From the NCBI GenBank assembly GCA_001778095.1, contig MFGA01000023.1, positions 46,811 to 110,810 of the forward strand: DNA of 64,000 nt, given 5' to 3'. The translations under genes and the position numbers were made by a program. Every line of letters starts with the position of its first letter. Position 1 is the stretch's first letter. The stretch is from Candidatus Falkowbacteria bacterium RIFOXYA2_FULL_38_12 (lineage in GTDB: Bacteria; Patescibacteriota; Patescibacteriia; XYB2-FULL-38-15). The notes below the pieces were generated by a model. It saw nothing but the letters and a program-made list of their open reading frames with translations, ran no database searches and had not been told where the DNA came from. Of this stretch, positions 6,361 to 36,193 are shown piece by piece.

Positions 6361-6381
6361 GTATAAAAATTTAATTTAAGA

Positions 6382-8939: not shown

Positions 8940-8948
8940 AGTTTAAAA

Positions 8949-9992: not shown

Positions 9993-9998
9993 AATTGG

Positions 9999-13460: not shown

Positions 13461-14565
13461 AAGGCGGTTGCAGTTTATTAACTTTAACCATTAGTTTCCA
13501 TGAAACGTTAAATTTCTTGGCTAGATCCTGAATTCCTTCTCCGGGATAGACTTCACAAACTATCCAATTTTTTTTGATCCACCTTTTTCTTTTTCGTGAT
13601 AACCATAAAAGGAAAATACTGAAAAATATAACTAAAAGAACGACTATCTCTATCGCTAATGCCGGAGCTTTAGGAAAGCTCCAAAACCAAACCGACGGAC
13701 CTTCGAGCCGAGTAATAAATTTTCCGCTCTTCACTCCCACTCCGGCTTCCGAATTATTGTCATACTCAACAACAAAATTAGAACGGAATAATCCGCCCCA
13801 GAACGGTTTTTTAAGCTCAAAATTCCAATCTGACGTTTCTCCGCGCAAAATCGGATATTCTCCGCCGTGGATAAAATAGGTTGATCCAAAAAAATATTTT
13901 GTTATCACTCTTGCGTTCGCTTCAATGGAAACGTTTCCTGTATTTTTCACAAAAGGACGCAACAAAAAACCATTTTTATCCGGTTTCACCGTAAAACCGA
14001 CAATTTCCACTTTCCGCACAAGAGTTCCCGGAATTGTGATAGCCACCCTAAGTCCTGTCCGAAAAGACAAGCTGGCGCCACTCCCGGCTTTAGCTTTTTC
14101 CTTTTTCTCTTGCATGACAATACAACCATTGTGTTCGCCAACGCTGGCGTTTTGAGGAACATTTATGGTAAACGGCACAATTTCACTTGTTCCGGGTGCA
14201 AGTGTTACTTCTGTTTTAAGAAGATTCATCCAAGCGCCAACATCTTTTTTTGCTTCTGAAGCTTGAGCGCAAGCAAAAGCTCCACCCGTAGATGGGGTGG
14301 AGTCAACTCCGTAAACAAGTATTGTTTTAGCTTCAGCGGAATTATTTACAGTCAATACACCTTCTTCCTGAATATCGCCCGGCTCAAGCGTGTGAATGAA
14401 GATAGATTCTGTGTGCGAATTTTCCTCTCTGGGATATGCCGGTCTTCCACCAAAGCCACCATACTCAATAGCTGAAACATTTCCGGCAAACAGTACTATC
14501 GTTAAAATTGCTAAAACAAAGCTAAAAAATCTTGATTTTTTGTTTTTAGCTCTCAATTTTTTCAT
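13414..14565 (-). CDS. cell-surface protein with signal peptide, beta-rich ectodomain, C-terminal TM and post-TM LysM domain (CscA/DUF916-like architecture)
   Basis: Signal FFSFVLAILTIVLFAGNVSA; TM LAIEIVVLLVIFFSIFLLWL followed by KRKRW; C-terminal CEVYPGEGIQDLAKKFNVSWKLMVKVNKLQPPYGLKEGEKIKVP matches LysM. The family call is by architecture and context only. Confidence 0.5.
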   Translation of the reverse strand: MKKLRAKNKKSRFFSFVLAILTIVLFAGNVSAIEYGGFGGRPAYPREENSHTESIFIHTLEPGDIQEEGVLTVNNSAEAKTILVYGVDSTPSTGGAFACAQASEAKKDVGAWMNLLKTEVTLAPGTSEIVPFTINVPQNASVGEHNGCIVMQEKKEKAKAGSGASLSFRTGLRVAITIPGTLVRKVEIVGFTVKPDKNGFLLRPFVKNTGNVSIEANARVITKYFFGSTYFIHGGEYPILRGETSDWNFELKKPFWGGLFRSNFVVEYDNNSEAGVGVKSGKFITRLEGPSVWFWSFPKAPALAIEIVVLLVIFFSIFLLWLSRKRKRWIKKNWIVCEVYPGEGIQDLAKKFNVSWKLMVKVNKLQPPYGLKEGEKIKVPPIE

Positions 14566-14582
14566 AGTTTAATACCCCCTTA

Positions 14583-15308
14583 TTATCCAGCGGCTACAAT
14601 TGAAAGAACCATATTAATATCGTAATCAGCCGCAGCTGCTTGTTCTGCGGGGATTTTCTGGCTTATAGCGACGCCCTGCAATGTCCAATCGCCAATATCA
14701 TCAGAACCGGCCGCTCCGGTAAGAACAGTGATACTATTGACTGGGGCAACATCAACAGCATCAAAAGCCGCCGAAGAACCTTTTGTGACATTAGTAACCA
14801 CACAACTTGCACATTGACCAACGGCTAAAGTTCCTGCCGCAGGATTGACTGTCATTTGACCACCGACCAAATCAACATCATCGTCATCGGTTGTATCAGT
14901 GCAACCGGAACCAGCGGGGTCGTTGTAATCAAAATCCGAGGCCGCGCCATCCCAGACATCCGTAGCCGGGGTTGCCGCCGCCAAACTTAATGTCCAACCG
15001 CCATCAGCGGCATCCGGATTTGTAACGTAAATCTGCTCTGATGCCGTGCCGAAAGAACCGGTTACGGTTTGACAAACCAAACTGAAATTTGCCGAACTCA
15101 TTGCCATTGTCGGACTGCCTACGGTAACATAAGTACCGTTAACAATATCTGTGGCAAGAGTACCGGCACCGATTGTTTGAGTAAAATTCGATGTTGACGA
15201 GGCAAAAACATAAGTGATGCCCCCAAATCCTCCGGCAACTATGATTGCTAGCGCCAAAGCGATTGCAATGTTTAGCCGTCTTAGGGCTTTTTGAACTAAT
15301 TTGTTCAT
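14583..15308 (-). CDS. small secreted WxL-like domain protein (paralog of the C-terminus of the 1153-aa protein)
   Basis: Signal/TM AIALALAIIVAGG, then a ~190-aa domain containing GGWTLSLAAATP and IGDWTLQGVAIS. The DNA is ~75% identical to 9999-10570. Confidence 0.6.
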   Translation of the reverse strand: MNKLVQKALRRLNIAIALALAIIVAGGFGGITYVFASSTSNFTQTIGAGTLATDIVNGTYVTVGSPTMAMSSANFSLVCQTVTGSFGTASEQIYVTNPDAADGGWTLSLAAATPATDVWDGAASDFDYNDPAGSGCTDTTDDDDVDLVGGQMTVNPAAGTLAVGQCASCVVTNVTKGSSAAFDAVDVAPVNSITVLTGAAGSDDIGDWTLQGVAISQKIPAEQAAAADYDINMVLSIVAAG

Positions 15309-21143: not shown

Positions 21144-21153
21144 ATATTTCTCC

Positions 21154-21253
21154 GCGTCATTCTGAGCAAAGCGACCCCGCAAAAGGCGGGGCGCGTATGC
21201 GGGAAAATATTGCAGGCATTCGCCTGAGATCCTTCACTGCGTTCAGGATGACG
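21154..21253. repeat. palindromic intercistronic element, GTCATYCYGAGC family
   Basis: CGTCATTCTGAGCAAAGCGA...GCGCGTATGCGGG...GAGATCCTTCACTGCGTTCAGGATGACG. The right 45 nt are nearly identical to the reverse complement of the 47321-47423 copy. Confidence 0.6.
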
Positions 21254-21470
21254 ATACTGTCAAGAATTATTATAAATTCTTAAGTACAAATATCGTACCA
21301 CAAAAAACAAAAAATTCCCAGTCATGAGAATCTTTTGGCGAGAGACAACCTATTGCTTTGCGTATAAATTGTATTTTATAAGCAATTGGAGAAATTGCTT
21401 CTCACAATAGATCGCCCCTCATTTATAATGCTACTACAAATAAATGAAAAAGTCATTAAAAAATCACAAA

Positions 21471-22472
21471 CTATCTTTGCCAAAGCTTCTTACCAATCTC
21501 CCAAATGGAACTATCTCCTTGTTTGTAAAGCCAATACCACCATTCTACTCCCCAAACATAAGCCTTACTAAAACCGGTCTTTCTGGCAAAATCTATGTGA
21601 TTTTTAACACGTTCCGGTCCCATAAGCTCTTTTTGCTTTATAATTTCTTCCGGGGAATTGGAATCCATTCTTTTCCATGGTTCGGCTTGCAATTCCGAAA
21701 TTATTACCTCATTTCTTGATAACCCCAGCAAATTAGCCTTTAATCTATAAGTAAAAGGCGCAAAAAAATGATAAAAATAGCCAAAATAATGATTATAGAC
21801 AACTCTATAAATTGATATACCAAGATAATCGCCCAAGTGAGCCGTTCTAACCCATGACGAAACCTCTCCGCTATCGGTAATTAAAACCGGCCTCGTATCC
21901 AAAGATTTAACAAGAGCGATTTCTTCTTTCAAAAATTCCCTGTCCCCGGGCGGGCATTCGCCAAAAATATCAAATAACGGCTCGTTTTCCACCTGCCAAA
22001 CTTTAATTGCGGGAGATTTTTTGTAACGCGTAACTACTTCTCTTATAAATCCCAAAATCGCCTTTTGACGATCTTCTTTTACTTCTTTTCTCGCCCAAGC
22101 GGGCGTGTGGCATTCCGGCCAATGAGGCTGACGTTCCCCCAAAACCAACATCACCTCCACATTTCTTTTTTCCGCTTCAGCTATTTGCCAATCTAAATCT
22201 TTGAAAAAGTAAGAACCTTTTTGCGCTTCAATACCATTCCATTCCGACTCAAGACGCAAAAATTTTATACCTAATTCATCAACCATTGCCAAGTAAGTTT
22301 CTTGCCAATCCAAACCCAAAGACTCGGCATAGTACCGACTAAAATTGGCGCCGAATTTTATATCTTGATTTTTTTTATTCAAGGGAGATATCCAAGCAAA
22401 AATAAAAAACAAAAATGCCGCTACTAAAACGGTTAAAAATACAAATATAATTTTCTTAAAAAATTTTATCAT
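21471..22472 (-). CDS. membrane-anchored glycoside hydrolase (GH5/GH113-like TIM-barrel)
   Basis: N-terminal TM, WQVENEP (acid/base NEP) and ISELQAEPW (candidate nucleophile) motifs. Confidence 0.45.
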   Translation of the reverse strand: MIKFFKKIIFVFLTVLVAAFLFFIFAWISPLNKKNQDIKFGANFSRYYAESLGLDWQETYLAMVDELGIKFLRLESEWNGIEAQKGSYFFKDLDWQIAEAEKRNVEVMLVLGERQPHWPECHTPAWARKEVKEDRQKAILGFIREVVTRYKKSPAIKVWQVENEPLFDIFGECPPGDREFLKEEIALVKSLDTRPVLITDSGEVSSWVRTAHLGDYLGISIYRVVYNHYFGYFYHFFAPFTYRLKANLLGLSRNEVIISELQAEPWKRMDSNSPEEIIKQKELMGPERVKNHIDFARKTGFSKAYVWGVEWWYWLYKQGDSSIWEIGKKLWQR

Positions 22473-23824
22473 TAATATTGAAGTATTGCTTTTAGCGTCT
22501 TCATTTCTTTTGTTTTGTGCTTGATAATTTTTTCAATATTATATGCTCCGTATTTACCACCCTCAAGAAATCCCTGCATAGCGAGTCGCGCGAAAAAACC
22601 GCTTTTCATCCAATCAAAAAGCCATTCATTGACATATTGAACGTCTTCTTGATCCGTGCCCGAACCGATACTCATCAACCATTTTCTGTTAAATTTTTCT
22701 TGCGATCCGATCGGTGTGGACATAATTATAGGCAAACCTAGGGCTGTATAAAAAGATAACTCGCTCGGTTTTGTCCATAAAATATCCGTCTCGCGAAGAG
22801 CTTTGTTGAATTTTTTAAAATATTCGTCTTTACTGTTGGCAAAAATTATTTTTATATTTTTATCAAGATATCTCCCGAGCCCAATACTCCGAACATTCTC
22901 TCTAAAATATTGATTAATTTCATTTCTGATTCCGGCAACTAAAACTATTTTAATTTCATTTGTCTTTATTTTTGAAGATAAATTTTTAACGATTTGAACT
23001 CCCAACTCTCTTTGCGCTCCCGCTCCGCCGACCGCGAAAGTTATTGTCGGAGGACGATTTGATTTGGAATGAGGCCATTTCTTGCCCAGTCGTTCGGCAA
23101 TTGTCAATTTATATTTTTGAATAAAGGCATTCTCGGGATCAAGATGAATCAGTCTTTCAGCCAAATCATGTTTTAAAATATCCAAAGATTCTCCCCCAAT
23201 GTTTTCTTCGGGCAAGGGAAAACCGGTCAAAAAAATATTTTCCGTTTTTATTCCGTAAAGTTTCAGTCTTTCCACGACACGATAATTGGAAGCGAGATAC
23301 CTGATTCTGCTTTTACTTGGAGTAAGCGACACCCAGGCTCTTGAAATATCCGCATCGCAAATAACACAATATATGTCTCCGCTATACCCCCAAACTTCGG
23401 CCATAAACGCCGGAATAAAAAAGGTAGTGATGAGCGGCAATGGTTTTTTGTCCAAACGCTCAATAAAATGTTTTCCCCATTGTCTTTTTTTAATCAAAGA
23501 AAAAATCTCTCTTTGCTGAAAATTGGTTTTGGATAAATCTCTTTTCGGATAAAAAGAAGGAATCTCTTGAACCTTATCGTAAAGATCAAAAGCAAGCTCG
23601 CCAAAAAACGGAACTTTTTTAAAACGAGAAACAAACTCATAAAATTTTCGGCTGTCCTGCCAAATTTTATGATCTTTTTTTGGCATTCCCGGATAATTGC
23701 TGGCGTTAACTATTTTCCCGCCATAAGCAAATCTCTTTAGAGGATAGGCCGCCCTTTGGTGACCATAGCCCATATCTACGGAGACTATCCAAGCTTTTCC
23801 GTTGTTATTTTTTTCCCCCTTCAT
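22472..23824 (-). CDS. GT-B glycosyltransferase, MGDG-synthase/UgtP-like (diacylglycerol glycosyltransferase family)
   Basis: DMGYGHQRAAYPL N-terminal motif, a FAVGGAGAQRELG nucleotide-sugar loop, and a GT28-like C-half. Confidence 0.45.
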   Translation of the reverse strand: MKGEKNNNGKAWIVSVDMGYGHQRAAYPLKRFAYGGKIVNASNYPGMPKKDHKIWQDSRKFYEFVSRFKKVPFFGELAFDLYDKVQEIPSFYPKRDLSKTNFQQREIFSLIKKRQWGKHFIERLDKKPLPLITTFFIPAFMAEVWGYSGDIYCVICDADISRAWVSLTPSKSRIRYLASNYRVVERLKLYGIKTENIFLTGFPLPEENIGGESLDILKHDLAERLIHLDPENAFIQKYKLTIAERLGKKWPHSKSNRPPTITFAVGGAGAQRELGVQIVKNLSSKIKTNEIKIVLVAGIRNEINQYFRENVRSIGLGRYLDKNIKIIFANSKDEYFKKFNKALRETDILWTKPSELSFYTALGLPIIMSTPIGSQEKFNRKWLMSIGSGTDQEDVQYVNEWLFDWMKSGFFARLAMQGFLEGGKYGAYNIEKIIKHKTKEMKTLKAILQY

Positions 23825-23844
23825 TTTTTTATTTTAGACTCGGT

Positions 23845-24010
23845 TATTAGACTTGTTGCGTAATAATCCTTTCTACTGCAACTAGTAATTTTGGCTACAA
23901 ATCTTCTAAAGCTCCTCTGCTTATACTAATGTATAAACATCGTCGCTTTATAAGATTTTCGCCTAAAATTACCGCGTTTCGTAACGAAAGATTATTACGC
24001 AACAAGTCTA
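23845..24010. repeat. long-hairpin intercistronic element, copy A (structured RNA or MITE-like)
   Basis: 20-26-nt terminal inverted repeats TAGACTTGTTGCGTAATAAT / ATTATTACGCAACAAGTCTA; inner arms ...CAACTAGTAATTTTGGC / GCCTAAAATTACCGCG...; sub-hairpin CTTTCG-TTA-CGAAAG. It is related to copy B at 27977-28136 in reverse orientation. Confidence 0.6.
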
Positions 24011-24745
24011 TTATCTGAAATCTTGGTAGATTTTATTCAAAGGTTTTTTAAAAATCCACTCGCTGAAAAAATTTATAACATATTTTGCAATCAACCTTAT
24101 TCCGCCTTCTCCGCCAAATCTTCTTAGAGAAGAGCCGATTACCAGCTCTTTTGAAAATTCTATTTTTCCGATTTTAGCTATTCGCCTTGTCAGCTCCGTA
24201 TCTTCGCCATAAAATTCCAAATTTGTATTAAACCCCCCTATTTTTTCTAAGGCCTCGCGCCTCACGGCAAAATTCCCTCCGATAAGCATTATTCCCCCTT
24301 GACGAAAAACATACTTCCAAATTTTTTCTCCAACGGGCATTATGATATTATTGTAGATGGATTCAAGAAAGGCTACTATTTTTGAAATTTTTTCAAAATG
24401 GTAAGGACCCGATATACCGATCAATTCGGAGTCGTTCGTAAATTTTTTGATAACGATATTAAACCAATTTTTTGAGACTATGGAGTCGGCGTCAAAAAAA
24501 ACCAATATTTCCCCAGAGGAAGCCAAATAGCCGGCCTGCCTTGCTCGAGTAACTCCTTTTTTTGATTCATTGATAACCCTCACTCCCTTAAAATTTTTAG
24601 CGACCATCTCTGTTTTATCAGTTGAGGCATTATTTACAACAATAACTTCAAAATTATCCGGCAAATCGCTGGAAAAAATAGAATTTAAACATCGGGGAAG
24701 AAATCCTTCTTCATTGTAGGCGGGAACAACTATGGATACTTTCAT
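24011..24745 (-). CDS. glycosyltransferase family 2
   Basis: VSIVVPAYNEE, FFDADS (DxD) and the GT2 catalytic core. Confidence 0.8.
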   Translation of the reverse strand: MKVSIVVPAYNEEGFLPRCLNSIFSSDLPDNFEVIVVNNASTDKTEMVAKNFKGVRVINESKKGVTRARQAGYLASSGEILVFFDADSIVSKNWFNIVIKKFTNDSELIGISGPYHFEKISKIVAFLESIYNNIIMPVGEKIWKYVFRQGGIMLIGGNFAVRREALEKIGGFNTNLEFYGEDTELTRRIAKIGKIEFSKELVIGSSLRRFGGEGGIRLIAKYVINFFSEWIFKKPLNKIYQDFR

Positions 24746-24812
24746 AAATCTTTCTGCCGTTATTCTGCGATAATTATATCACAGAATAGAGTAATCTACT
24801 AAGAATATTTTT

Positions 24813-25277
24813 CTAGTAGTGGTACTCTTTACCACTCATAATCGCCGATGCTCGATAAATTTGTTCCAAGAGGATCATTCTGGCCATTTCGTGAGGAAAA
24901 GTCATTTTGGAAAGGGATAATTTTCGATATGGATTTTCTAAAATGTTTTCATGAAATCCAAGCGCTCCCCCGATTACAAAAATAATTCTTTCATTTTTAT
25001 CTTCAAGAAATTCTGCGAATTCATGAGAAGAAAAATTTTTTCCTTTTTCGTCCAGAATAATAATATTTCCCTCATTTTTCTCTAAAAATTTCAAGATCTT
25101 CTCCCCTTCTATCTTTTTCGCTTTATCTTTATCCGATTCTCTTTTAAAAGGCTCTGCTTCAATTTCTTCAACATCTATCTTGGCGTACGGACTCAATCTT
25201 TTTAAATACTCGCCTATCGCTTCACGAAAATAATCTTTTTTGATTTTTCCCACAGCCAAAATTGTTATTCTCATCAT
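24813..25277 (-). CDS. rlmH: 23S rRNA (pseudouridine1915-N3)-methyltransferase RlmH
   Basis: SPOUT-fold motifs ILDEKGK, VIGGALGF and the expected ~155-aa length. Confidence 0.8.
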   Translation of the reverse strand: MMRITILAVGKIKKDYFREAIGEYLKRLSPYAKIDVEEIEAEPFKRESDKDKAKKIEGEKILKFLEKNEGNIIILDEKGKNFSSHEFAEFLEDKNERIIFVIGGALGFHENILENPYRKLSLSKMTFPHEMARMILLEQIYRASAIMSGKEYHY

Positions 25278-25340
25278 AAGATTATTCTATTTTATAAAAC
25301 CATCCGGTTTTTTAAATAATTCTGTTTTGGAGAAAATTTT

Positions 25341-26729
25341 TTAAAGATTTATCCGATAGTCGCAATAATGAAATATCTCTTCTCTATTATCTGCTATTAG
25401 AATTGTATTGTTTTTGTTTATGATTTTTCTAAAAATATCTACCATGACTGGAATATCCTTAAGATGCAAACCTCTCGTCGGAGTATCAAAGATGTAAACA
25501 GTCCTATCACCTAATTTTTTTGAAAGAATATTTGCGACTCTTACTCTCTGGGATTCTCCTCCGCTTAAAGAACCTGATTTTTGTCCAAGAACCAAATAGC
25601 CCAAACCTACTTCCTGCAAAAATTTTAATTTTCTTACTATTAGGGTATCTGTTTTAAATATTTCTAATGCCTCATCAATTGTCATATTTGTGACTTCTTC
25701 AATGTTTTTACCCTTATAGTAAACTTTTAAAACATCTCTTGAAAAATCATTTTTTGACTCTAAAATGCTATTAGAAATAATAAAATCGGACTTTGTTAAT
25801 CCTAATTGCTTTGATAATTTTTCATTTGCAAAAATTTCTCTTATGTTGTCCCAAACTTTTGCATAGGTCGCGAGCGTGCTTGATGGATGATCTCCGATTG
25901 GAGATTGGGGCACAATAAATGACCTGCGCACATTTGATTTACCGTCAACATTGACCGTTTTTAATTTGATTTTCCATGCATTTTTTCCTTTAAATAAAGC
26001 ACGATAAGTGACATCCAATAATGTTGACTTGCCAGAACCTGAACAGCCAGTTAGGCAAACTATACTTATGAGCGGAAATATAAAACTGTAATTGTTAAAA
26101 TTTCTAGCGGATATTTTTGAAATTGTAACTACTTTGCCCTTCTTGATAGTTTCATGTTTAAGTAAGTCTTTATTTACATTAAAAACATATTCGGCTGTAA
26201 TAGTACCGGACTTTTTAAATTCAGTTAAGTTTCCCTCAAAAATCAATTTCCCTCCATATCGTCCAGCACCTGGACCAAGCTCTATTATATAATCAGCATT
26301 AGCAATTATTTCCTTGTTATGTTCAACTGCGATTATTGAATATCCTTGCTTAACCTTATCTTTCAATATTTTTAAAATCGATTTTCGTTCTTTTTCACAA
26401 AATCCAGCACAGGGCTCGTCAACTATCAACAAATCTTCCTTGTGAATCATGTCCAATTTCTTTTTTAATTTATCAAAATTAAATTCGCCCAAACTCAATT
26501 TTGTATCCCTTGGAAGAATTACTTTTTGCTCAAGAATATCAACAACCTTCGGTAGATTTTTTATATCCCATTTGTTCTTGATCGAATTATTATATAGTAC
26601 CTCATGAACTAAGGTGGATTTACCGCTTCCGCTCGGACCAACAATAGCAACCAATTTTTGCAATGGTATTTTAACTGAAAATCCTTTCAGATTGTTCTTT
26701 GTTATATCTTTTACTATTATGTATTTCAT
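25341..26729 (-). CDS. minimal UvrA-like tandem ABC ATPase (no Zn-finger or insertion domains)
   Basis: Half 1 has GPSGSGKST, LLIVDEP, VEHN and the UvrA-specific ADYIIELGPGAG but a degenerate signature LSLGE. Half 2 has GCSGSGKST and LSGGESQR but FDTPT instead of DEPT and IADN instead of IEHN. Confidence 0.65.
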   Translation of the reverse strand: MKYIIVKDITKNNLKGFSVKIPLQKLVAIVGPSGSGKSTLVHEVLYNNSIKNKWDIKNLPKVVDILEQKVILPRDTKLSLGEFNFDKLKKKLDMIHKEDLLIVDEPCAGFCEKERKSILKILKDKVKQGYSIIAVEHNKEIIANADYIIELGPGAGRYGGKLIFEGNLTEFKKSGTITAEYVFNVNKDLLKHETIKKGKVVTISKISARNFNNYSFIFPLISIVCLTGCSGSGKSTLLDVTYRALFKGKNAWKIKLKTVNVDGKSNVRRSFIVPQSPIGDHPSSTLATYAKVWDNIREIFANEKLSKQLGLTKSDFIISNSILESKNDFSRDVLKVYYKGKNIEEVTNMTIDEALEIFKTDTLIVRKLKFLQEVGLGYLVLGQKSGSLSGGESQRVRVANILSKKLGDRTVYIFDTPTRGLHLKDIPVMVDIFRKIINKNNTILIADNREEIFHYCDYRINL

Positions 26730-26949
26730 TGGACTAACTTAAATAATTAAATTTATAAAAATAAAAAGGGATGAATGCCTCAACAATCGCTGTTAAAATT
26801 GAAGAAAATAAAAGAATGAGGCCGGTAATCTTATGTTTTTTGGCCTCATGCCAATATAACTTTAATGTTTTTTTGGTATTATTTTTCATTTCAAATTATT
26901 TTTTAATACTACCTTCATTAATTATAGATTAAATTACGAAATAATAAAA

Positions 26950-26979
26950 ATCGGACGCTTTTAAGGCATCCGATTTTTA
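26950..26979. terminator. rho-independent terminator downstream of the major pilin gene
   Basis: ATCGGACGC-TTTTAAG-GCATCCGAT hairpin with T-runs on both sides (bidirectional). Confidence 0.55.
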
Positions 26980-26998
26980 GTTTCTTTTTTTAAAAAAA

Positions 26999-27439
26999 TT
27001 ACTGTGTGGAACTGATAGCCGCCCCTAATTCAGCTGACCCGGCCGTAAGAGTTACCCGACCAGTGTCTCCATCTCTAATGATAGTATATCCCGTATCATA
27101 ATCAGCGCAACTGGTATATGAACCTGCTGAAGGATCAAATGGTAATGATGACATGTAGTTGGGAACTAAACAAGCGCAGATGTCGTAACCGGCTACCGAG
27201 ACAGCAGTTGCGACAATAGGAATAACTCCTTCGGCGCAAGTAAATGTTCCTTGATTTTCCGCTGTATTCTGCTGAATGGCGTTCAAGATGGCCGGAAGAT
27301 GGGACCAACGTTGAGAATTACGCGCTGAAGCAAATTGTCTTGCCGGATTTAAGGCAATGATCACCGCTCCGGCGATAACCGCGATAAGAGCTATTACGAT
27401 AAGTAGCTCTATCAAGGTAAAACCTTTGTTTTTCATCAT
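26999..27439 (-). CDS. type IV pilin (major pilin candidate)
   Basis: Class III signal MMKNKG|FTLIELLIVIALIAVIAG with Glu+5; 146 aa with 4 Cys; strong terminator downstream. Confidence 0.8.
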   Translation of the reverse strand: MMKNKGFTLIELLIVIALIAVIAGAVIIALNPARQFASARNSQRWSHLPAILNAIQQNTAENQGTFTCAEGVIPIVATAVSVAGYDICACLVPNYMSSLPFDPSAGSYTSCADYDTGYTIIRDGDTGRVTLTAGSAELGAAISSTQ

Positions 27440-27576
27440 AGTTAATTAGGCGCCATCAAAATTTTCTGATTGCTACTTTTAAAAGTGGCAGAAAGAAAAA
27501 AGATGGACATTATTTATAATTAATATATTATACCTCATTACAAGGAAAAATAATATTATATCTGTGGAAAACTTTT

Positions 27577-27972
27577 TTAAAAATCTTCCACTTCTTCCCA
27601 CGAATCAACAACGACCGGTAAACGTGACGATAAGACCGCCTGCATTTTCGCGGATTGATTGCCTCGAGAAGCCTCCGCTTTTATTGTCCATGGCGGGCCC
27701 GGATTAATAGCTAAAATATTACAGAGAAGCGTTCCGTTATTTATTGTCTCACTTCCTTGATAATTAATATTTCTTCCTAGTCTATCAATGGCAAGTTCAA
27801 TGCAAGCGTTTGCCGCGCTTAAAGAAATTTTTTTATTTTTGGCCGCTTCAATAATTTGTATTTCGCGCATAAAGGAAGAAGTCCCGGTTAAAGCCATACT
27901 AAGCATCACTACCGATAAAATCAAAACTGATATAATCATGGCCGCTCCATTTTGATTTAGCTTCTTGATCAT
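27577..27972 (-). CDS. pilus-associated protein with non-canonical prepilin-like N-terminus (PilX/TadE-like)
   Basis: KLNQNGAAMIISVLILSVVM N-terminal TM lacks Glu+5. Assigned by pilus-operon context. Confidence 0.4.
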   Translation of the reverse strand: MIKKLNQNGAAMIISVLILSVVMLSMALTGTSSFMREIQIIEAAKNKKISLSAANACIELAIDRLGRNINYQGSETINNGTLLCNILAINPGPPWTIKAEASRGNQSAKMQAVLSSRLPVVVDSWEEVEDF

Positions 27973-27976
27973 AATT

Positions 27977-28136
27977 TAGACCCGCTGAATAATAATCTTT
28001 CGTTACGAAACGCAGTAATTTTAGGCGAAAATTGTGAAAAGCGAGGAGGGATATTGGTAATACCTCGACGAGATTTGAACAATTTACAGCCAAAATTACA
28101 AGTTGCAGTAGAAAGGATTATTGTTCAGTGGGTCTA
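27977..28136. repeat. long-hairpin intercistronic element, copy B
   Basis: Terminal inverted repeats TAGACCCGCTGAATAATAAT / ATTATTGTTCAGTGGGTCTA (with G-U-compatible differences). Inner arms match copy A in reverse orientation (…AATCTTTCGTTACGAAACGCAGTAATTTTAGGCGAAAAT…). It fills the gap between the stop at 28138 and the start codon at 27972. Confidence 0.6.
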
Positions 28137-28137
28137 G

Positions 28138-28644
28138 TTAACGACGAATGACCGCCGTATCACTTAAGGAATAATTTGATTGCGCTCTACCAATCGCTCC
28201 GCGTAATTCACCGACCATTTCTATTTTCACGGAAGATGGATCGCTATCAAGTCCGACAAAAGACAGGCCGGTTATTTCCACCTCATCTGAAGTTATTTCG
28301 ATTGTCTCGGCATTTCCTTCCTTTATCATAATTACGCCATTCACCAAAGAAAAAATCGTGGGATTTCTTGTCGGATCAGTCATCGTGATTGTTAACTCAT
28401 CATCCTCCACACCGATAATCGGCGAAGAAATACCTGAAGCTGAAAAAACTTTTCTTTTTATGCTATCTATGGCAAATCTCATATTTTCTTCCAGAATCAG
28501 GGATGATCTGGTCTTAACCCTGCTATTTAAAACGGCGCTTGTTAGAAGAACAATACTACCGACAATAAGACCGATTAGAGCGATATATATTAACGTTTCA
28601 ATAAGGGTCGACCCTGTGGATTTTAATTCTTTTTTTGACGGCAT
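28138..28644 (-). CDS. minor pilin / pseudopilin (prepilin-type N-terminal domain)
   Basis: STG|STLIETLIYIALIGLIVG with Glu+5. Confidence 0.65.
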   Translation of the reverse strand: MPSKKELKSTGSTLIETLIYIALIGLIVGSIVLLTSAVLNSRVKTRSSLILEENMRFAIDSIKRKVFSASGISSPIIGVEDDELTITMTDPTRNPTIFSLVNGVIMIKEGNAETIEITSDEVEITGLSFVGLDSDPSSVKIEMVGELRGAIGRAQSNYSLSDTAVIRR

Positions 28645-28649
28645 AAATT

Positions 28650-30071
28650 TTATTGCGAAGTGATTATCCTAAGAGCGTCGTTAGATCGAACTGAAACATA
28701 GACTGTGTTATCTTCAAAGGCGATATCTGTCGCAATTTGAGAAAAATTCAGATTACTATAGGCAATTATATTTGACGGATCGGAAACATTAAAAATTTGA
28801 AATTCTCCGTTGGAATACGATGTGGCAAAAAACCCCAAACTATCAGCTGCAAAAACGCTATTAACACTTGAGCCAAAATTTGATGATCCAAGGAGAGTAG
28901 GATTATCCGCGCTTGAAACGTCGATAATAGCGATCTCGTGATGTTCGTCATGATCTCCGCCGACAGTGCGAACTAAATATGCTTTATTATCTTGGCTATT
29001 AATATATATCCCCTTTCCGTCTTCGGTTGCTCCCAAAATATCCAGCGATGCTGATATTACGGGATTAACCGGATCACTGACGTTAACGACGATAAATTCT
29101 CCTGAATCCTTAGCTGTTGATAAAAATACTCTTTCGCCAAAAACGGCAATGTCGTTGACATTAGCATCAATTTCAAGTGAGCCAACGACGCTGGGATTAG
29201 CCGGATTTGAAACATTAACAATATAAAACTCTTGGCTACTTGATTTTTCTGAACCGACATAAGCATATTGTCCAAATATAGCCACACTTAACCCGTCTTC
29301 AGTATTCCCAGGAAAACCAACCGACGAAACAAGAAGAGGATTATTTGTATTGGAAATATCAATTATCTGCAATTGATTGCCGTTAATGTTGGCAACATAA
29401 GCGTAATTTCCGCTAATAGCTACTGAATTTAAACCATCACCAGTCTTTAGGGAACTGACCAAAAGAGGATTATTGCCATTAGTTGCGTTAACAATAAAAA
29501 AATCCGCTTTTTTTGAATCATTTGCTGTCGCGGTCAGATAGATGAATTTATCCCTAACCGCAATAGAAGTCGCGGATTCTCCTGCTCCAAGATCAACACT
29601 CCCGAGTGTTTGCGGATTGCTCCAATCTCCCGAAAGCAACGGCTCAAAAAGATTTCGCCAATTAGACAAAACGCTGGTTAAAGTAATTGTCTGATTTCTT
29701 AAATAACTGGGAGTCCAGGTTACTGTTGAGGTAATCATTCTCTCATTTACTCCTAATTCGGAAACTGAAATAGAGCGAGTATAGCCATCTTCATTTACGT
29801 CAGATTCCCCTTCAAATGTCCATTTATTTTCGGATATTTTTAAGCCATGATTTCCCAAAGCAAGCAGATCCCAATCACGATCGCGAATGGTTCTTGCGCC
29901 CTCCAAGCCCTCTTCCGCTAAAGATATCGCTTGGGTTCCATCACGAACTATTTCCAAACTTTTAAATTGACTACCAAGCAAAACAAAAACTGTTCCTGCG
30001 GCGACAGCAAAGAGACCAAGCGCGAGAATAACTTCCAAAAGGGATTGTCCTTTGTTATTTATTTTCTTCAT
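28650..30071 (-). CDS. pilin-like protein fused to LVIVD-repeat beta-propeller (candidate pilus tip adhesin)
   Basis: KG|QSLLEVILALGLFAVA prepilin-type N-terminus, then ≥6 repeats of the form YAYV..(x)..I(I/V)(D/N)(I/V)S(N/D)P.NP.L(V/I)(G/S)S, which are LVIVD-type propeller blades. Confidence 0.6.
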   Translation of the reverse strand: MKKINNKGQSLLEVILALGLFAVAAGTVFVLLGSQFKSLEIVRDGTQAISLAEEGLEGARTIRDRDWDLLALGNHGLKISENKWTFEGESDVNEDGYTRSISVSELGVNERMITSTVTWTPSYLRNQTITLTSVLSNWRNLFEPLLSGDWSNPQTLGSVDLGAGESATSIAVRDKFIYLTATANDSKKADFFIVNATNGNNPLLVSSLKTGDGLNSVAISGNYAYVANINGNQLQIIDISNTNNPLLVSSVGFPGNTEDGLSVAIFGQYAYVGSEKSSSQEFYIVNVSNPANPSVVGSLEIDANVNDIAVFGERVFLSTAKDSGEFIVVNVSDPVNPVISASLDILGATEDGKGIYINSQDNKAYLVRTVGGDHDEHHEIAIIDVSSADNPTLLGSSNFGSSVNSVFAADSLGFFATSYSNGEFQIFNVSDPSNIIAYSNLNFSQIATDIAFEDNTVYVSVRSNDALRIITSQ

Positions 30072-30076
30072 AAAAA

Positions 30077-30565
30077 TTATTCGTTTGAAATCAAGCCTTG
30101 GCTATTAACACTAATCATCTTTGTTTTATTGTTTAAAGTAAAAGTAATTTCTACCGGGTTTTCCGGAATCCCATCAAGACGATGAAAAATAATTTCACTT
30201 GGCACTTCCTCTTGTCCGGAAGAAATTAAAAGCGCGCTACTGAAGTTGGTAATAAGATCAAATGCCTGGATACGATCATTAAAATTTTCCCCTTGAAAAC
30301 GAACAATATAATTTGGGAAAATCGCTACACCCCAAACAGAATCCGATGTCCCGGAAATTGAATCAGCTTGAGCCGCTTTTAATTCATTCTTGGTTAGCTC
30401 TACGGCTCTTTCAAGTTCTTGCGTAACAACAAATTGATTGCCAAAAAGAGCCAATGATCCTACGGCCATGGCTCCGATTGCCAAAACAATCAAAAGTTCT
30501 ATCAGGGTAAACCCCCGATTTTTTTTAATACTCCCCAAAAAGGGCTCCTTCATAAATATAATCAA
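30077..30565 (-). CDS. minor pilin (GspH/FimT-like prepilin)
   Basis: NRG|FTLIELLIVLAIGA with Glu+5. Confidence 0.7.
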   Translation of the reverse strand: MIIFMKEPFLGSIKKNRGFTLIELLIVLAIGAMAVGSLALFGNQFVVTQELERAVELTKNELKAAQADSISGTSDSVWGVAIFPNYIVRFQGENFNDRIQAFDLITNFSSALLISSGQEEVPSEIIFHRLDGIPENPVEITFTLNNKTKMISVNSQGLISNE

Positions 30566-31698
30566 CCCGAAAAACTTTGAGTTAACTGGTATATCGGCGT
30601 AATCACGGAAAGAGCCACGAAGCCAACCATTATTCCGACAAGCATCAAAACAAACGGCTCAATCATGGTAGACAAATTTCTTGTCATGGTATCTATTTCT
30701 CTGTCTGAAAAATCAGCCAAAGCGGTCAGACTTTCCGAGAGACGACCGGTGCGTTCTCCTATCACAACCATGTTTGCCGAAGTTTTGGTAAATAATAATT
30801 TTAGCTTGCATAATTGTCCACCGACCGCCTCTCCTCGCTCAATCAAATCCGCTATTCTATTAATTTCTCTTTTATAAACAAGATTGGTCAACGAGTCGGC
30901 AGTGATTTTTAAAGCAGGAACTATTTTAATCCCGCTCAAAAGAAGAATTCCAAAAACGCGCGAAAATTGCATAACTTGTATTTCTCTAAAAAGCCTCCCC
31001 AAAATCGGCAATCTGATAAAAAAACCGTGAACAATTATTTTTATTTTTTCTATTCTAAAAAGAAAAACAAAAACCACAGAGATGACTATCAAAAAAGCTA
31101 AAATAAACGGCCAATAAGTCGAAAAACCGTTTGCTCCGGCCAAGAGCATTCTAGTGGTAAAGGGCAATTTCAAATCCATTGAAGAAAAGAGGGGTAACAA
31201 CTGCGGTAACATAAAAAAACCTAAATATATCCCGACCCCCAGCGCCCCGCAAAAAACTATCGCGGGATAAAGAAGAGCATTTCTGACTTTACCTTGGAGG
31301 TCTTGGGTTTTTTCAAGCTGGGCCGCCAAATATTTCAATGTTGACTGAAGCGTTCCGGAGGTCTCCCCCACCTTCACTAAATTAACGAAAAACGGATCAA
31401 ATATTTTTTGAAATTTATTTAAGCTAAAAGCCAAAACTTGTCCGCCCGATAAATCTTTAACGGCAATTCCTAAAATATATTTTAATGATTTTGAATCTGT
31501 CTGTTCGTGAAGTGTCTCCAAGGCTTCTCTTAGTGGTATCCCGGCTTCAAGCATAACTGATAGATGTTTAGCTAATAAAATTTTATCTCTAATTTTAACA
31601 CTCAAAAAATAAACCTTCTTTTCTTTGACGGTTTTAATTTTTGCGATTTTTTTGACTTCTTCTTTTTTTTCAGTCACTGATGATTTTTTTGAATCCAT
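30562..31698 (-). CDS. pilC: type IV pilus assembly platform protein PilC (GspF family)
   Basis: Two T2SS-F domains, three TM segments and a typical ~380-aa length. It overlaps the next gene by 4 nt. Confidence 0.8.
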   Translation of the reverse strand: MDSKKSSVTEKKEEVKKIAKIKTVKEKKVYFLSVKIRDKILLAKHLSVMLEAGIPLREALETLHEQTDSKSLKYILGIAVKDLSGGQVLAFSLNKFQKIFDPFFVNLVKVGETSGTLQSTLKYLAAQLEKTQDLQGKVRNALLYPAIVFCGALGVGIYLGFFMLPQLLPLFSSMDLKLPFTTRMLLAGANGFSTYWPFILAFLIVISVVFVFLFRIEKIKIIVHGFFIRLPILGRLFREIQVMQFSRVFGILLLSGIKIVPALKITADSLTNLVYKREINRIADLIERGEAVGGQLCKLKLLFTKTSANMVVIGERTGRLSESLTALADFSDREIDTMTRNLSTMIEPFVLMLVGIMVGFVALSVITPIYQLTQSFSG

Positions 31699-31702
31699 AT
31701 TA

Positions 31703-33007
31703 TTAATCGCGGATTACTCTCAATATCTCTGCGATGGAAGTAACTCCGGCAACTGCCTTATTAAAACCGTCTTCAAGCATGGTGGTCATCCCCCCTTGTT
31801 TTGCGGCAACCCTGATTTCATCGGCATTAGCTCGGCGCATAATAAGCCTTCTGATCGGTTCTGTCACTTCAAGTACTTCAAAAATACCGCTTCTTTTTGT
31901 ATATCCGGTATTGTTGCAAGCACTACAACCGTTTTCTTTCCAAAAACTTTTATACTTTTTTAATAATTCATTGGGAATAACGGCGGAAAGAGAAGCTGTC
32001 TCTTCACGCGTAAGAGTATACTGACTCCGGCATTTTTCACAAAGACGACGAACGAGTCTCTGGCCAATCGCTATATTTACCGTTGAGGCGATTAAAAAAG
32101 GCTCCGCGCCCATATCAAGCAACCTGGGCAAAGTTGTTGCCGCATCGTTTGTGTGGATAGTGGAAAGTAATAAATGTCCGGTCATAGCGGCATTAATAGC
32201 GATGCCCGAAGTCTCTTCGTCACGAATTTCTCCCACCATGATTATATTTGGGTCTTGACGAACGATCGAACGCAGACCGGCGGCAAAAGTAAGATTCGTT
32301 TGGGTGTTGACTTGGATTTGAGTGACACCGGCGACAGAATATTCAATCGGATCTTCTATTGTGACAATGGAAACATTTCTTGAATTTAAAATTTTTAGAA
32401 TAGAATAAAGCGTTGACGTTTTTCCCGATCCGGTCGGCCCTGTCGCCAAAATCATTCCGTATGGTTTTTTAATATATCTCTGCAAAATATCCAAATCGCG
32501 AGCGGAAAAACCAAGCTCAATCAAATCCAAAGCGCGCGCTTCGCCGACAAGAAGCCTCATGACCACATTTTCTTCGTGATAAGTTGGAATAATGGAAACG
32601 CGAAGATCAATTTCATTTGTCCCTTCAATTACCTTAAACCTGCCGTCTTGCGCCATAAAATGTTCGTCAGTGCGAAGACCGGCTAAAACTTTTATGCGAG
32701 AAATAATAAGAGGATGAAGTTCTTTTTTTAAGGAAAGAACATCATGAAGAACGCCATCTATGCGATAGCGAATTAAAACCGAACTTGGTTGAGGATCAAT
32801 GTGAATATCCGAAGCGGATGATTCCCACGCTTTTTTAACAATCAAAGCAACTAAATCCGTGATTGAATGAGGTCCTTCCAATTCTTTCAAGTCGCGCACT
32901 AATTGAGTTTTTTTAGTTTGCTCTATGCTCGCCTCAATAAGTTCGTCAAAACTTTTCTTATCCTCTTTTTTAACCAAAATTTCTTTTGTGTTTTTCTTTT
33001 CCCCCAT
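31703..33007 (-). CDS. pilB: type IV pilus assembly ATPase PilB (GspE family)
   Basis: Walker A GPTGSGKTST, Asp box, His box, and a C-terminal tetracysteine CEKC...CSAC. Confidence 0.8.
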   Translation of the reverse strand: MGEKKNTKEILVKKEDKKSFDELIEASIEQTKKTQLVRDLKELEGPHSITDLVALIVKKAWESSASDIHIDPQPSSVLIRYRIDGVLHDVLSLKKELHPLIISRIKVLAGLRTDEHFMAQDGRFKVIEGTNEIDLRVSIIPTYHEENVVMRLLVGEARALDLIELGFSARDLDILQRYIKKPYGMILATGPTGSGKTSTLYSILKILNSRNVSIVTIEDPIEYSVAGVTQIQVNTQTNLTFAAGLRSIVRQDPNIIMVGEIRDEETSGIAINAAMTGHLLLSTIHTNDAATTLPRLLDMGAEPFLIASTVNIAIGQRLVRRLCEKCRSQYTLTREETASLSAVIPNELLKKYKSFWKENGCSACNNTGYTKRSGIFEVLEVTEPIRRLIMRRANADEIRVAAKQGGMTTMLEDGFNKAVAGVTSIAEILRVIRD

Positions 33008-33058
33008 AGTATTTATAATTCATTTATTATAGCATAAAAAAACATTTTAAAAAAGAAA

Positions 33059-33081
33059 AAGAGCTCTTCCGGCTCTTTTTT
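33059..33081. terminator. rho-independent terminator (bidirectional)
   Basis: AAGAGC-TCTTCCG-GCTCTT followed by TTTTT, and preceded by AAAAAGAAAAA. Confidence 0.5.
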
Positions 33082-33103
33082 ATCTCCAATGTTGTAATAT
33101 ATT

Positions 33104-34234
33104 TTATATGCTCCCCGCGGCTTCTCTCATAACCGCGACAACCTGTTCGTTTATTGTTTTTGGATCAAGTGTTTTTCTTAGATTGTTTAACTGTTTAGGT
33201 AATATTTCTTGGCCGCAAAGTTGTTTTGCTCTTATCGCTACTTCTTTCAAATTATCAAAAGACATAACCATATTATCAAGCCCGGCCATATGCAAAATAT
33301 CTGCGCAACCCATCTTGTCGCTGACTAAAACGGGGATACCGAGACAAACCGCTTCCATCGGAACATTCCCAAAAGTCTCAAAAAGAGACGGCGCAATAAT
33401 CAAACCCTGCGATTTATAAAATTGATAAAGACCTTCCTGGCGCATCGGCGCTAATAAATTTATTGTCTTGGGAATATTTTTTATTTTTTCGCGTTTAGTC
33501 ACAAAAGTGGCCACGTGATCCCAATTTTGTTTTTTCAAAATTTTATGCACATCAAAAAAAGCCTTGAAATTTTTAATAGCATCCCATCTCCCAACAGCGG
33601 CGATTCTTCTTTCGACTGATCTGTCTATATCTATTTTGGGAGTATTTACCGGATTGGGAATAACATAAGCTCTTTCTATCGGTCTTCTGTAAACTTTTTT
33701 TTCAACGACGTCTCGACAAAGCTGGGACGGGAAGATAAAAGAAAAAACTCTTTTCCTGAAAGATTTTTCCATCGCTAAAAAAATGCTTCTCTCTCTTGGC
33801 TTAAATTTAAAAGTTTCCAAAGACAATACTCCGGCGTACCGCAAAACTATCGGTATTCCCAATTCGTGAGCGGCAATAGATATTATCCATGGCAGATAAT
33901 AAGTTCCGTTTAAAAATAAAACGTCGGGCATTTCTCTTCTTAAAATTTTTTTGACCATACTGATTATCGGCCGATAGTACTTTTCTACGTCTTTCAAACT
34001 CTTTGCCCTCTCCAACGCCTTATTCAAGGGAAGATCATGAATATTAAAAATATGTTGCTCAAACCAATCGGGAGAAAGATGCCAAAAAGAAGTCGCTCCT
34101 CTCATGTGGCGACGAGCGTTTAATTCAATCCCAATAACTCCCTTACCTGTTCCATTTAGAAAAGTCAATAAATTAACATTGGAAGTGCCTATCCCGCCAA
34201 GATAATCTCTAGTAACATTCATTGCGATTCGCAT
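33104..34234 (-). CDS. glycosyltransferase family 4 (GT-B, retaining)
   Basis: ETFGNVPMEA (EX7E motif) in the C-terminal half. Confidence 0.65.
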   Translation of the reverse strand: MRIAMNVTRDYLGGIGTSNVNLLTFLNGTGKGVIGIELNARRHMRGATSFWHLSPDWFEQHIFNIHDLPLNKALERAKSLKDVEKYYRPIISMVKKILRREMPDVLFLNGTYYLPWIISIAAHELGIPIVLRYAGVLSLETFKFKPRERSIFLAMEKSFRKRVFSFIFPSQLCRDVVEKKVYRRPIERAYVIPNPVNTPKIDIDRSVERRIAAVGRWDAIKNFKAFFDVHKILKKQNWDHVATFVTKREKIKNIPKTINLLAPMRQEGLYQFYKSQGLIIAPSLFETFGNVPMEAVCLGIPVLVSDKMGCADILHMAGLDNMVMSFDNLKEVAIRAKQLCGQEILPKQLNNLRKTLDPKTINEQVVAVMREAAGSI

Positions 34235-34287
34235 AAATAAATTTTAATTTACCGGAACCTTCAAGGCGCCGTTTAATCTAAAACATT

Positions 34288-34725
34288 TTAATTTCCCAAA
34301 AGGCTTGCTGGTGTCACCCATTTTCCCGCTCCCAAAGCATTGCAAGATTTCGCCTGATAGCCAGCCTCTTCGGGTGTAATCGGCGCATACGACCAAATAA
34401 TACTTTCAGTGATTGTCCCTCCGGTCGCTTGACATCCACCTAAATCGGAATAAGGACAAGCGTCAAGAGAAAATTTTCCTTCCACGCAAGATAATTTCAT
34501 TCTTTCTTCGGTAAACACTTCTCCAATAAAATCAACGCAAGTGCCTTTACTATCAATAACATTACAGCTACCCCGCACTTTTGGCTTAGTGGTTGTTTCA
34601 ATTATCGGCTTAATATCTTCTTCGTAATCCACTCTCTGATCTTCAGGCATGTCGTCACTGCAACCGGCGCCCATAGTTAGTAAAACTGAAAGAACAGTAA
34701 ACAGCAAAATTTTTATTTTAGGCAT
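34288..34725 (-). CDS. Cys-rich secreted lipoprotein-like protein (145 aa)
   Basis: Signal peptide ending LTMGAGC; 8 further cysteines. Confidence 0.45.
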   Translation of the reverse strand: MPKIKILLFTVLSVLLTMGAGCSDDMPEDQRVDYEEDIKPIIETTTKPKVRGSCNVIDSKGTCVDFIGEVFTEERMKLSCVEGKFSLDACPYSDLGGCQATGGTITESIIWSYAPITPEEAGYQAKSCNALGAGKWVTPASLLGN

Positions 34726-34838
34726 ACTTTTTTAATAATTTATTATAAATATAAACTATATTCAGTATACCAAAAAAGATACTTTTAAGCATCTTTTTAT
34801 TGTTAGGCATTACTAATATTATTATACAGCGATTTATT

Positions 34839-36074: not shown

Positions 36075-36193
36075 AAAAAAATGTGACCCGATTTTCCGCT
36101 GGGCCACAAATTGACACAAGAGATTCGAGTCGTTGGCCTTTTAATACGGCCAATGATTAGTTAAGATATCTTATTATGACACGGAAAGATTCA

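Follow-up and report, generated by a model that had tools for sequence, protein, structure and literature searches.

Two inverted copies of a foldback element

Within the 64,000-nt stretch of Candidatus Falkowbacteria bacterium RIFOXYA2_FULL_38_12 analysed here (contig MFGA01000023.1; the whole stretch is hereafter the window), two gaps between genes of minus-strand operons are occupied by copies of a long foldback element, which lie in mutually inverted orientation and share 83% identity overall. Copy A (23848–24010, minus strand) is a full-length subfamily-I element of 163 nt with a central module of type 2 (nhmmer E = 3e-45), and copy B (27977–28136, plus strand) is a full-length element of the same subfamily, 160 nt long, with a central module of type 1 (nhmmer E = 1.4e-45). 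The evidence assembled below indicates that both are probably short (55–168 nt), non-coding, non-autonomous foldback mobile elements, akin to MITEs (transposable elements of the miniature inverted-repeat type), inserted in the very short intergenic gaps of a member of the Candidate Phyla Radiation (CPR). An earlier note on this DNA had located both copies and their inverted arrangement, with copy A beginning three nucleotides before the start adopted here (23845), and had left a structured intercistronic RNA and a MITE as alternative explanations. Beyond copies A and B, nhmmer and mismatch searches of the window returned zero further copies, against 0–0.05 arm matches expected by chance.

The outer terminus of copy A (23848–23861), formed by TAGAC and the hypervariable 9-mer TTGTTGCGT, is the perfect complement of its partner at 23997–24010, formed by the 9-mer ACGCAACAA and GTCTA. 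Between them lie the two conserved arms, read on the plus strand as AATAATCCTTTCTACTGCAACTAGTAATTTTGGC (23862–23895) and ATTTTCGCCTAAAATTACCGCGTTTCGTAACGAAAGATTATT (23953–23996), the latter including a local mini-hairpin, TTTCG-TAA-CGAAA. In copy B, the terminus at 27977–27990 (TAGAC and the 9-mer CCGCTGAAT) pairs with the one at 28123–28136 (GTTCAGTGG and GTCTA), with two positions joined as G·T or G·U on the plus strand, as the earlier note had seen. Its further observations also proved exact: the inner arms have the sequence it quoted, and the 20-nt termini, different in A and B, each pair with their own partner. Neither arm is found at any other place in the window.

Copy A follows a GT2 glycosyltransferase gene (24011–24745, minus strand), whose TAA stop codon (24011–24013) directly adjoins the element, and precedes a gene on the same strand at 22472–23824. 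The earlier note had described this junction as a gap between GT2 and GT-B glycosyltransferase genes; the upstream assignment stands, and the downstream gene is DUF6938 by Pfam, GT28-C-like, and a GT28 C-terminal domain protein in the naming of one source. Copy B lies between a pilin-like gene (28138–28644, minus strand), which has a GSTLIE prepilin-type N-terminus and no Pfam match, and a gene for a 131-aa protein (27577–27972, minus strand), whose ATG begins 4 nt past the element, so that the terminal stem of copy B would contain any ribosome-binding site of this gene. The claim that each copy exactly fills its gap is nearly correct for copy B, where the stop codon (28138–28140) and the ATG at 27972 leave only 1 nt and 4 nt outside the element, and fails for copy A, from which 23 nt extend to the ATG at 23824. 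These 23 nt include a solo, 13-nt terminus-like fragment, TAGACTCGGTTAT (23835–23847), directly beside the element, which may be what an earlier element left behind, as a remnant or scar, or else an aberrant end.

Copy B is set in a type IV pilus-like operon, identified with Pfam, that extends over 26999–33007 and encodes PilB (T2SSE), PilC (T2SSF), several N_methyl pseudopilins and a pseudopilin with LVIVD repeats. DprA is encoded within 61010–62110 of the window. The joint presence of the pilus-like operon and DprA suggests that the organism is probably naturally competent and takes up single-stranded DNA (ssDNA).

Family anatomy, insertion polymorphism and turnover

Relatives of copies A and B were found well outside the window, in sources that are metagenome assemblies throughout (comparison contigs and loci carry labels such as L001 or L033). 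An exact scan for TTTCGTAACGAAAGATTATT over GTDB, with one genome per species, yielded three loci, two in one metagenome-assembled genome of the Magasanikbacteria and one in a metagenome-assembled genome of the Saccharibacteria. In JGI metagenomes, a scan for TTCGTAACGAAAGATT-N12-GTCT returned 31 loci, of which 30 are real and one is a chance match; two are truncated where their contigs end, and another two, L007 and L015, are chimeric or recombinant. Groundwater metagenomes contribute about 25 distinct loci, and the alignments used below (A2 and A3) comprise about 22 distinct full-length copies of 160–168 nt. The elements can be locally abundant: the Magasanikbacteria contig JACRFU010000073.1 (L001, positions 1–8000) has four members of the family among the housekeeping genes of an 8-kb stretch, one of them an 85-nt form placed exactly between mraZ and rsmH, a density far above that of the Falkowbacteria window, with its two copies in 64 kb.

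Read forward, a full-length element consists of (T)AGAC, a variable 9-mer, AATAATC, C-TTTCTACTGCAAC-N2-GTAATTTTGGC and a central module, followed by ATTTTCGC-N3-AAAATTAC-YGCG-TTTCGTAACGAAAG-ATTATT, a second variable 9-mer and GTCT(A). Conservation is distributed very unevenly along this structure. Mean pairwise column identity reaches 95% and 87% in the two termini and 92% and 90% in the arms, falls to 69% in the centre, and amounts to only 46% and 41% in the two 9-mers, of which 17 and 21 different versions are seen among 22 copies. The centre occurs in two main types, type 1 as in copy B and type 2 as in copy A; the idea that type 1 is an inverted type 2 was discarded, the difference at the G·A loops described below being a C-G to G-C flip. 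A conserved small open reading frame (ORF) within the element was likewise rejected, since by visual inspection neither the ATG nor the frame is kept between central types. Short forms of 139, 85 and 55 nt arose as internal deletions between short direct repeats, and total length ranges from 55 to 168 nt. The nhmmer profile further revealed a second subfamily (L033:1592–1751, L029, L030 and L024) and recovered more divergent Magasanikbacteria copies. These and the subfamily-II copies share with subfamily I no more than the outermost ~35 nt at either end, their interiors being unrelated, so that the whole element is a foldback whose outermost ~35 nt per end serve as the terminal inverted repeats common to both subfamilies.

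Close relatives of the window strain show that these elements come or go as discrete units bounded by AGAC...GTCT. Contig L033 is syntenic with 21764–36206 of the window at 85–97% identity; near site A its DUF6938 gene is 93% identical at the nucleotide level and the immediate flanks are 94–97% identical, and where the window reads ...AGATAA[TAGAC...163 nt...GTCTA]ATAACCGAGTCTAAAATAAAAAAATGAAGG, L033 reads ...AGATAATAAAAATGAAGG. Six contigs of about 92% nucleotide identity (L033 and L047–L051) have an empty site, their DUF6938 gene starting 5–6 nt past the GT2 stop codon, as opposed to a spacer of 186 nt in the window. The element is also missing at this site from a 72% relative (L044), spacers across L044 and L047–L051 measuring 5–19 nt, and the 186-nt gap is present in eight of the eight contigs that bear an identical protein at site A. 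Because the site is empty in these relatives and the window strain alone has it filled, copy A is a derived, lineage-specific insertion. The converse case is seen at 34752–34760, an empty target site in the window whose minus strand reads ...ATATAGTTTATA... and where L033 carries a 160-nt subfamily-II element (ATAT-AGT-[AGCCCC...GGGTCT]-AGT-TTATA). At site B both the window and the syntenic L033 carry an element, but the two differ in centre type and left stem. In a more distant relative (L043, 78% nucleotide identity), the GT2-DUF6938 junction holds the end of a subfamily-II element, and site A was either hit twice, or occupied and remodelled.

The same relative bears on a second hairpin-repeat family, unrelated to the first, with the structure CGTCATTCTGAGC[A/G]AAGCGA...GAGATCCTTCACTGCGTTCAGGATGACG and members at 21147–21254, 47322–47428 (inverted) and 37137–37214 of the window. 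A further member (L043:1430–1500) lies between the DUF6938 gene and a GH42-like gene, at a place where the two genes of the window overlap, and this second family hence also looks insertion-polymorphic.

T and A usually stand just outside AGAC...GTCT, and the elements lie at or beside stop codons; at four or more loci the terminal TAG of the element is itself the stop codon of an adjoining long ORF. With the element delimited as AGNC...GNCT, the 3-nt flanks are identical at 4 of 25 loci, namely ATT at copy A, AGT at the subfamily-II element of L033, and AAT at L014 and L002, and both proven polymorphic insertions are among these four. An A-N-T flank is found on the left at 13 of the 25 loci (52%) and on the right at 28%, against a background of 9%. 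These flanks suggest that insertion may duplicate 3 bp of an A-N-T target. A Correia- or IS630-type duplication of TA was considered and rejected, because the clean pair of empty and filled sites between L033 and the window needs three added nucleotides.

Within occupied sites, the element changes far more rapidly than its surroundings. At the locus represented by L018 and L029, flanks that are 99.5–100% identical (0–2 differences in 800 nt) enclose elements that differ at 14 of 160 nt, mostly through transitions in stems. At another, with flanks 99% identical (L026:1520–1682 and L030:834–996), the central 72 nt are exactly inverted, in a flip/flop arrangement bounded by GTAATTTT/AAAATTAC repeats that constitutes the only true inversion seen. 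Every combination of stem class and centre type is seen, the right stem ATTCAGCGGGTCTA recurs at no fewer than three loci, and in L007:893–1052 and L015:374–538 the left stem and flank derive from one locus and the right stem and flank from another, leaving the stems unpaired. This reassortment of stems and centres points to frequent exchange, within copies as well as among them, by recombination, gene conversion or template switching, allowing that some of the cases may be assembly chimeras.

Conserved pairing and strand preference

Folded as RNA, both strands of both copies form one long hairpin of -50 to -78.7 kcal/mol, with z-scores of -8.2 to -13.4 relative to dinucleotide shuffles, and with DNA parameters the corresponding values are -29.8 to -45.4 kcal/mol and -7.6 to -12.1. 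The two strands are not equivalent. The better-folding strand, designated S, is the reverse complement of the forward reading; it is the minus strand at copy A, where it corresponds to the mRNA sense, and the plus strand at copy B, where it is antisense to the genes of the pilus operon. The minimum free energy is lower on the S strand in 22 of 22 copies (mean -71.2 versus -56.0 kcal/mol), and the same bias is found in the four subfamily-II copies (4/4), in spite of their unrelated interiors. On the 22 copies of alignment A3, from which all pair counts derive, RNAalifold predicts 59 pairs and -59.6 kcal/mol for the S strand, against 51 pairs and -42.0 kcal/mol for the forward strand.

The pairing of the S strand is maintained in spite of sequence divergence. 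Standard pairs fill 97.4% of 1,296 cells, compared with 85.4% in shuffles and 40–48% in slid registers; 27 of the 59 pairs show double-sided changes (17.5 ± 1.6 in shuffles), and the covariation score is 0.367 versus 0.136, with the observed value reached by none of 500 shuffles. The inference of the earlier note that pairing is upheld across divergent copies is thus borne out in a much larger sample, and the outcomes that it had named as arguing otherwise, folding no better than shuffled controls and no additional copies or covariation in related genomes, did not materialize. In the variable helix of 9 bp, located between conserved ends, several pair types occur at every position: its sequence is free and its pairing is kept. 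An origin of the 9-mers from guide or target flanks was tried as an explanation of this variability and rejected, the longest match to the own flank averaging 4.5 nt and that at other loci 4.6 nt.

Pairing, wobbles and loop geometry all favour one strand of the element, whatever the direction of the genes around it. Cells with G·U outnumber those with A·C by 24:7 in the variable helix and by 114:15 overall, although the latter ratio overstates the number of independent events, because many G·U cells are the same positions inherited by descent. The conserved central 'mismatches' resolve on the S strand as two tandem G·A/A·G motifs around a single Watson-Crick pair (columns 72/102), which 11 copies, of type 2, form as C-G and 10, of type 1, as G-C, while on the opposite strand the same positions would be pyrimidine-pyrimidine mismatches. 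Two asymmetric loops in the arms, CG/A and GA/ACG, are kept in all copies.

Relative to the genes, the orientation of the S strand is mixed. At co-directional gene pairs it is antisense at about seven loci and sense at about five, and a further four or so loci lie between convergent and about two between divergent gene pairs. Since the S strand is sense at copy A, antisense at copy B and mixed elsewhere, the bias belongs to the element and not to the genes. Scans of the elements for an internal promoter or intrinsic terminator found nothing above shuffle expectation, the sole 'promoter' candidate joining a chance -35 box in the flank to the conserved AATAAT in the role of -10 box. In a search of the window against Rfam 15, only tRNAs passed the gathering threshold, and a permissive search added only MIR821, a plant miRNA, which scored 40 bits where its threshold is 249, a spurious match attributable to a generic long hairpin.

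Origin of the elements and rival explanations

Following the definition of MITEs as elements of 50–800 bp without a transposase gene (PMC11602168, PMC3184786), the elements described here are small, devoid of a transposase gene and dispersed in many copies, they possess terminal inverted repeats longer than the minimum of 10–15 bp, and their sites are found both empty and filled. The MITE alternative contemplated in the earlier note accordingly fits the multiple copies, the empty and filled sites in close relatives, the deletion derivatives and the equal 3-nt flanks at both demonstrably recent insertions. The best reading of the family is that it is newly described, behaves in the manner of ERIC and Correia elements, and is new to the CPR.

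One of the closest parallels is provided by the ERIC or IRU sequences of the Enterobacteriaceae, imperfect palindromes of 127 bp that are classed as MITEs and exert orientation-dependent effects on mRNA (PMC3184786, PMC10969869). Both families comprise non-coding, multi-copy, imperfect palindromes of 100–170 bp that extend over the whole element and have T/A at their ends, occupy transcribed intergenic gaps in either orientation, and include internal deletion or insertion variants. They differ in that there is no sequence similarity (a blastn search with copy A at word size 11 gave zero matches in 20,395 E. coli records from 5,426 genomes), in the CPR host, in the hypervariable, compensated 9-bp subterminal helix, and in a folding bias tied here to the strand of the element and not to the transcript. 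Correia elements of Neisseria (CREE/NEMIS) measure 104–157 bp, exist in long and internally deleted forms at filled and empty sites, form hairpin RNA when co-transcribed and may carry -10-like boxes (PMC3184786, PMC10969869). The present family resembles them in element size, in its long and short forms and in filled and empty sites between close strains, but the 26-bp terminal inverted repeats of Correia elements are well conserved and flanked by a TA duplication, whereas the repeats here are partly free in sequence and the flank repeat, if real, has three nucleotides (A-N-T). Mobility was likewise inferred from orthologous empty and filled sites for Nezha, which also has a stable predicted structure, but the terminal inverted repeats and direct repeats of Nezha match those of ISNpu3 (PMC3184786), whereas no parent insertion sequence was found here.

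Strand-specific structure is otherwise known from systems that recognize a hairpin on one strand, such as the REP/BIME elements moved by RAYT proteins (HUH Y1 transposases) and the IS200/IS605 family. A GTAG/CTAC motif in the conserved arm (TTGCAGTAGAAAGG) recalls REP sequences, and this arm GTAG is the sole resemblance by REP-RAYT/PATE criteria; REPs are GC-rich hairpins of 20–40 nt, whereas the present element is AT-rich, 160 nt long and has mutually paired ends. IS200/IS605 elements have a separate hairpin at each end and a fixed 4–5-nt target without duplication, whereas the flanks here are variable. No gene for a RAYT, TnpA or Y1 transposase was seen in the window, in L001 or in the neighbours, and no reverse transcriptase was seen near the copies. 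Among 55 ORFs of at least 90 aa in the window, with about ten short ones set aside, none matched a transposase or integrase Pfam model at E ≤ 1e-8, and none of the nine ORFs of at least 110 aa in L001 did so at E ≤ 1e-3. When 227 ORFs from around the copies were compared all against all, no neighbour gene family recurred and only syntenic orthologues emerged, and two viral_contigs pattern scans (IMG/VR), together with blastn against phage and plasmid collections, gave no sign of a phage or plasmid origin.

Several observations weigh against interpreting the elements as MITE-like. An autonomous parent element or transposase was not found in about 350 kb of flanks, a sample of the genomes involved and not their whole extent. 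A MITE would also be expected to have a target-site duplication of 2–10 bp, and 21 of the 25 loci have no identical flanking 3-mers. The extra 16 nt at copy A, of which the TAGACTCGGTTAT fragment is part and which all relatives with an empty site lack, are unexplained by target-site duplication. Conservation in classical MITEs is highest in the terminal inverted repeats, and here a 9-bp stretch inside them is the least conserved. The compensatory changes could stem from hairpin-templated mutation or gene conversion and not from selection, and the S-strand structure was derived on the S strand itself from related copies, a bias from which the comparison of minimum free energies is free. Finally, the exclusive reliance on metagenome assemblies is a caveat for the whole data set, and L007 and L015 in particular are either products of real inter-copy recombination or assembly chimeras.

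A host cis-regulatory RNA, acting in polycistronic mRNA as a stability barrier, an RNase III or RNase E site, an attenuator or a translational-coupling switch, would account for the very stable hairpins of both window copies within co-directional operons, for the start codon 4 nt from the stem at copy B, and for covariation with G·U pairs of the kind typical of RNA helices, and it has precedents in Correia and ERIC sequences, which are documented to act on mRNA via RNase III and RNase E, respectively (PMC10969869, PMC3184786). It is nonetheless quite unlikely, in view of an S strand that is antisense at copy B and at roughly 7 of the 12 loci with co-directional genes, of some six loci between convergent or divergent genes, of the 5–6-nt spacer that replaces the element at the GT2-DUF6938 junction of six related contigs, and of the lack of a terminator-like tail, a conserved promoter or an Rfam match. 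The proposal of the earlier note that the copies are dedicated intercistronic processing or stability elements, or attenuators, is thus not upheld: orientation is mixed family-wide, the same junction lacks the element in strains of about 92% identity, and neither terminator-like nor above-chance promoter signals are present. Given this mixed orientation, such a function would in any case not explain the strand-specific fold. A different RNA, a mobile or stand-alone structured RNA gene of about 160 nt with S polarity, spread by reverse transcription or selfishly, would agree with the strand-specific G·U pairs, the tandem G·A motifs and the C-G/G-C flip between them, the conserved internal loops between covarying helices and the ~9% of paired cells that wobble, a usual value for RNA. 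We regard it as very unlikely, since the elements have neither an internal nor a conserved external promoter, their ends, with flank repeats, are defined at the level of DNA, no reverse transcriptase was seen near them, no Rfam ribozyme or RNA family matches, and deletion forms persist without the whole interior.

The covariation might instead be a mutational by-product of quasi-palindrome template switching or gene conversion in a decaying MITE, as the divergence of the L018/L029 element far ahead of its flanks, the exact central inversion between L026 and L030, the reassortment of stems and centres among loci (with ATTCAGCGGGTCTA at three or more of them) and the recombinant or chimeric copies L007 and L015 would lead one to expect. 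Template switching perfects palindromes, yet the asymmetric and tandem G·A loops are kept in every copy; a consistent strand bias (24:7 in the variable helix, 22/22 copies) could not result from it, and the coexistence of arms at 90–92% identity with 9-mers at 41–46% would be left unexplained, all of which makes this account unlikely. Least credible is a folded-ssDNA recombination site in the manner of integron attC or the CTX-phage attP(+), at which a tyrosine recombinase would capture adjacent genes. Those sites share with the present elements a reliance on structure over sequence in part of the site, one active strand that folds better and conserved extrahelical or mismatched bases in otherwise paired arms, and the position of the elements right behind stop codons, as well as DprA and a type IV pilus operon through which ssDNA would enter the cell, could be read in the same direction. 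The R''/R' core of attC (RYYYAAC...GTTRRRY), its arrays in one orientation and the accompanying intI have no counterpart here, where the ends are AGAC/GTCT, the window copies are 4 kb from each other and oppositely oriented, copies elsewhere occur dispersed, in either orientation, among housekeeping genes (mraZ-rsmH) without forming arrays, the polymorphism concerns the element itself and not a neighbouring gene, and no integrase was matched in the window at E ≤ 1e-8.

For a MITE-like foldback element, selection would most likely act on a folded single strand with its ends paired, because the ends covary and only one strand keeps the wobble and G·A geometry. The substrate or intermediate would then be a folded single strand, of ssDNA or RNA, with both ends paired, and the asymmetric conserved arms would form the binding site of a putative trans-acting protein, either a transposase or a recombinase. 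Only copies still able to fold on the S strand would propagate, yielding copy-specific compensatory stems, while stems and centres would be shuffled, within as well as between copies, through recombination, template switching and inversion. Incidental effects on read-through transcripts are likely by analogy with the known families, Correia acting through RNase III and ERIC through RNase E on mRNA (PMC10969869, PMC3184786): read-through of the operons would generate a hairpin of -50 to -79 kcal/mol that, together with the buried ribosome-binding site at copy B, would probably alter mRNA stability or translational coupling, as a side effect and not as the element's reason to exist. A stronger version, in which the family is a new foldback transposon or mobile structured RNA that is recognized and moved as one folded strand with its ends paired, is offered tentatively, as a possibility that we consider rather doubtful.

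Other repeats of the window belong to separate contexts. A 37-nt direct repeat, TTACCATGCCCCGCAAATGCGGGGTACCAACTGAGCT (97% identity), occurs at 39341–39377 and 39732–39768, flanking tRNA-Thr in a tRNA cluster, and includes a GC hairpin and an apparent tRNA-end fragment. The block at 5018–15308 consists of large ORFs without a Pfam match at 1e-8, and at 9999–14890 tandem, paralogous repeats of ~1.1 kb (72–79% identity) lie in and around an ORF of 1,153 aa that has no Pfam match.

Members of the CPR, or Patescibacteria, have very small, gene-dense genomes, and to our knowledge their repertoire of mobile elements is little characterized. No paper linking the CPR to repeats of this kind was found in the literature searched, and the main text of a large 2024 survey of MITEs does not mention the Patescibacteria. 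Hairpins of 160 nt invade even 5-nt intercistronic junctions in core operons of these bacteria, including those of GT2-GT28-like, pilus and mraZ-rsmH genes, and carry near-identical arms across lineages as distant as the Falkowbacteria, Magasanikbacteria and Saccharibacteria. In practical terms, the elements offer strain-level markers, a source of assembly chimeras to be reckoned with in CPR metagenomes, and a lead to the enzyme that moves them. Their turnover outpaces that of the flanks and is accompanied by a clean, strand-specific signal of covariation. If the elements are indeed recognized and moved as one folded strand, proteins would recognize the CG/A and GA/ACG loops and the tandem G·A loops, the 9-bp helix would serve as a spacer of free sequence of which only pairing is required, and the partner would be an undescribed transposase or recombinase, possibly acting on ssDNA imported through competence.

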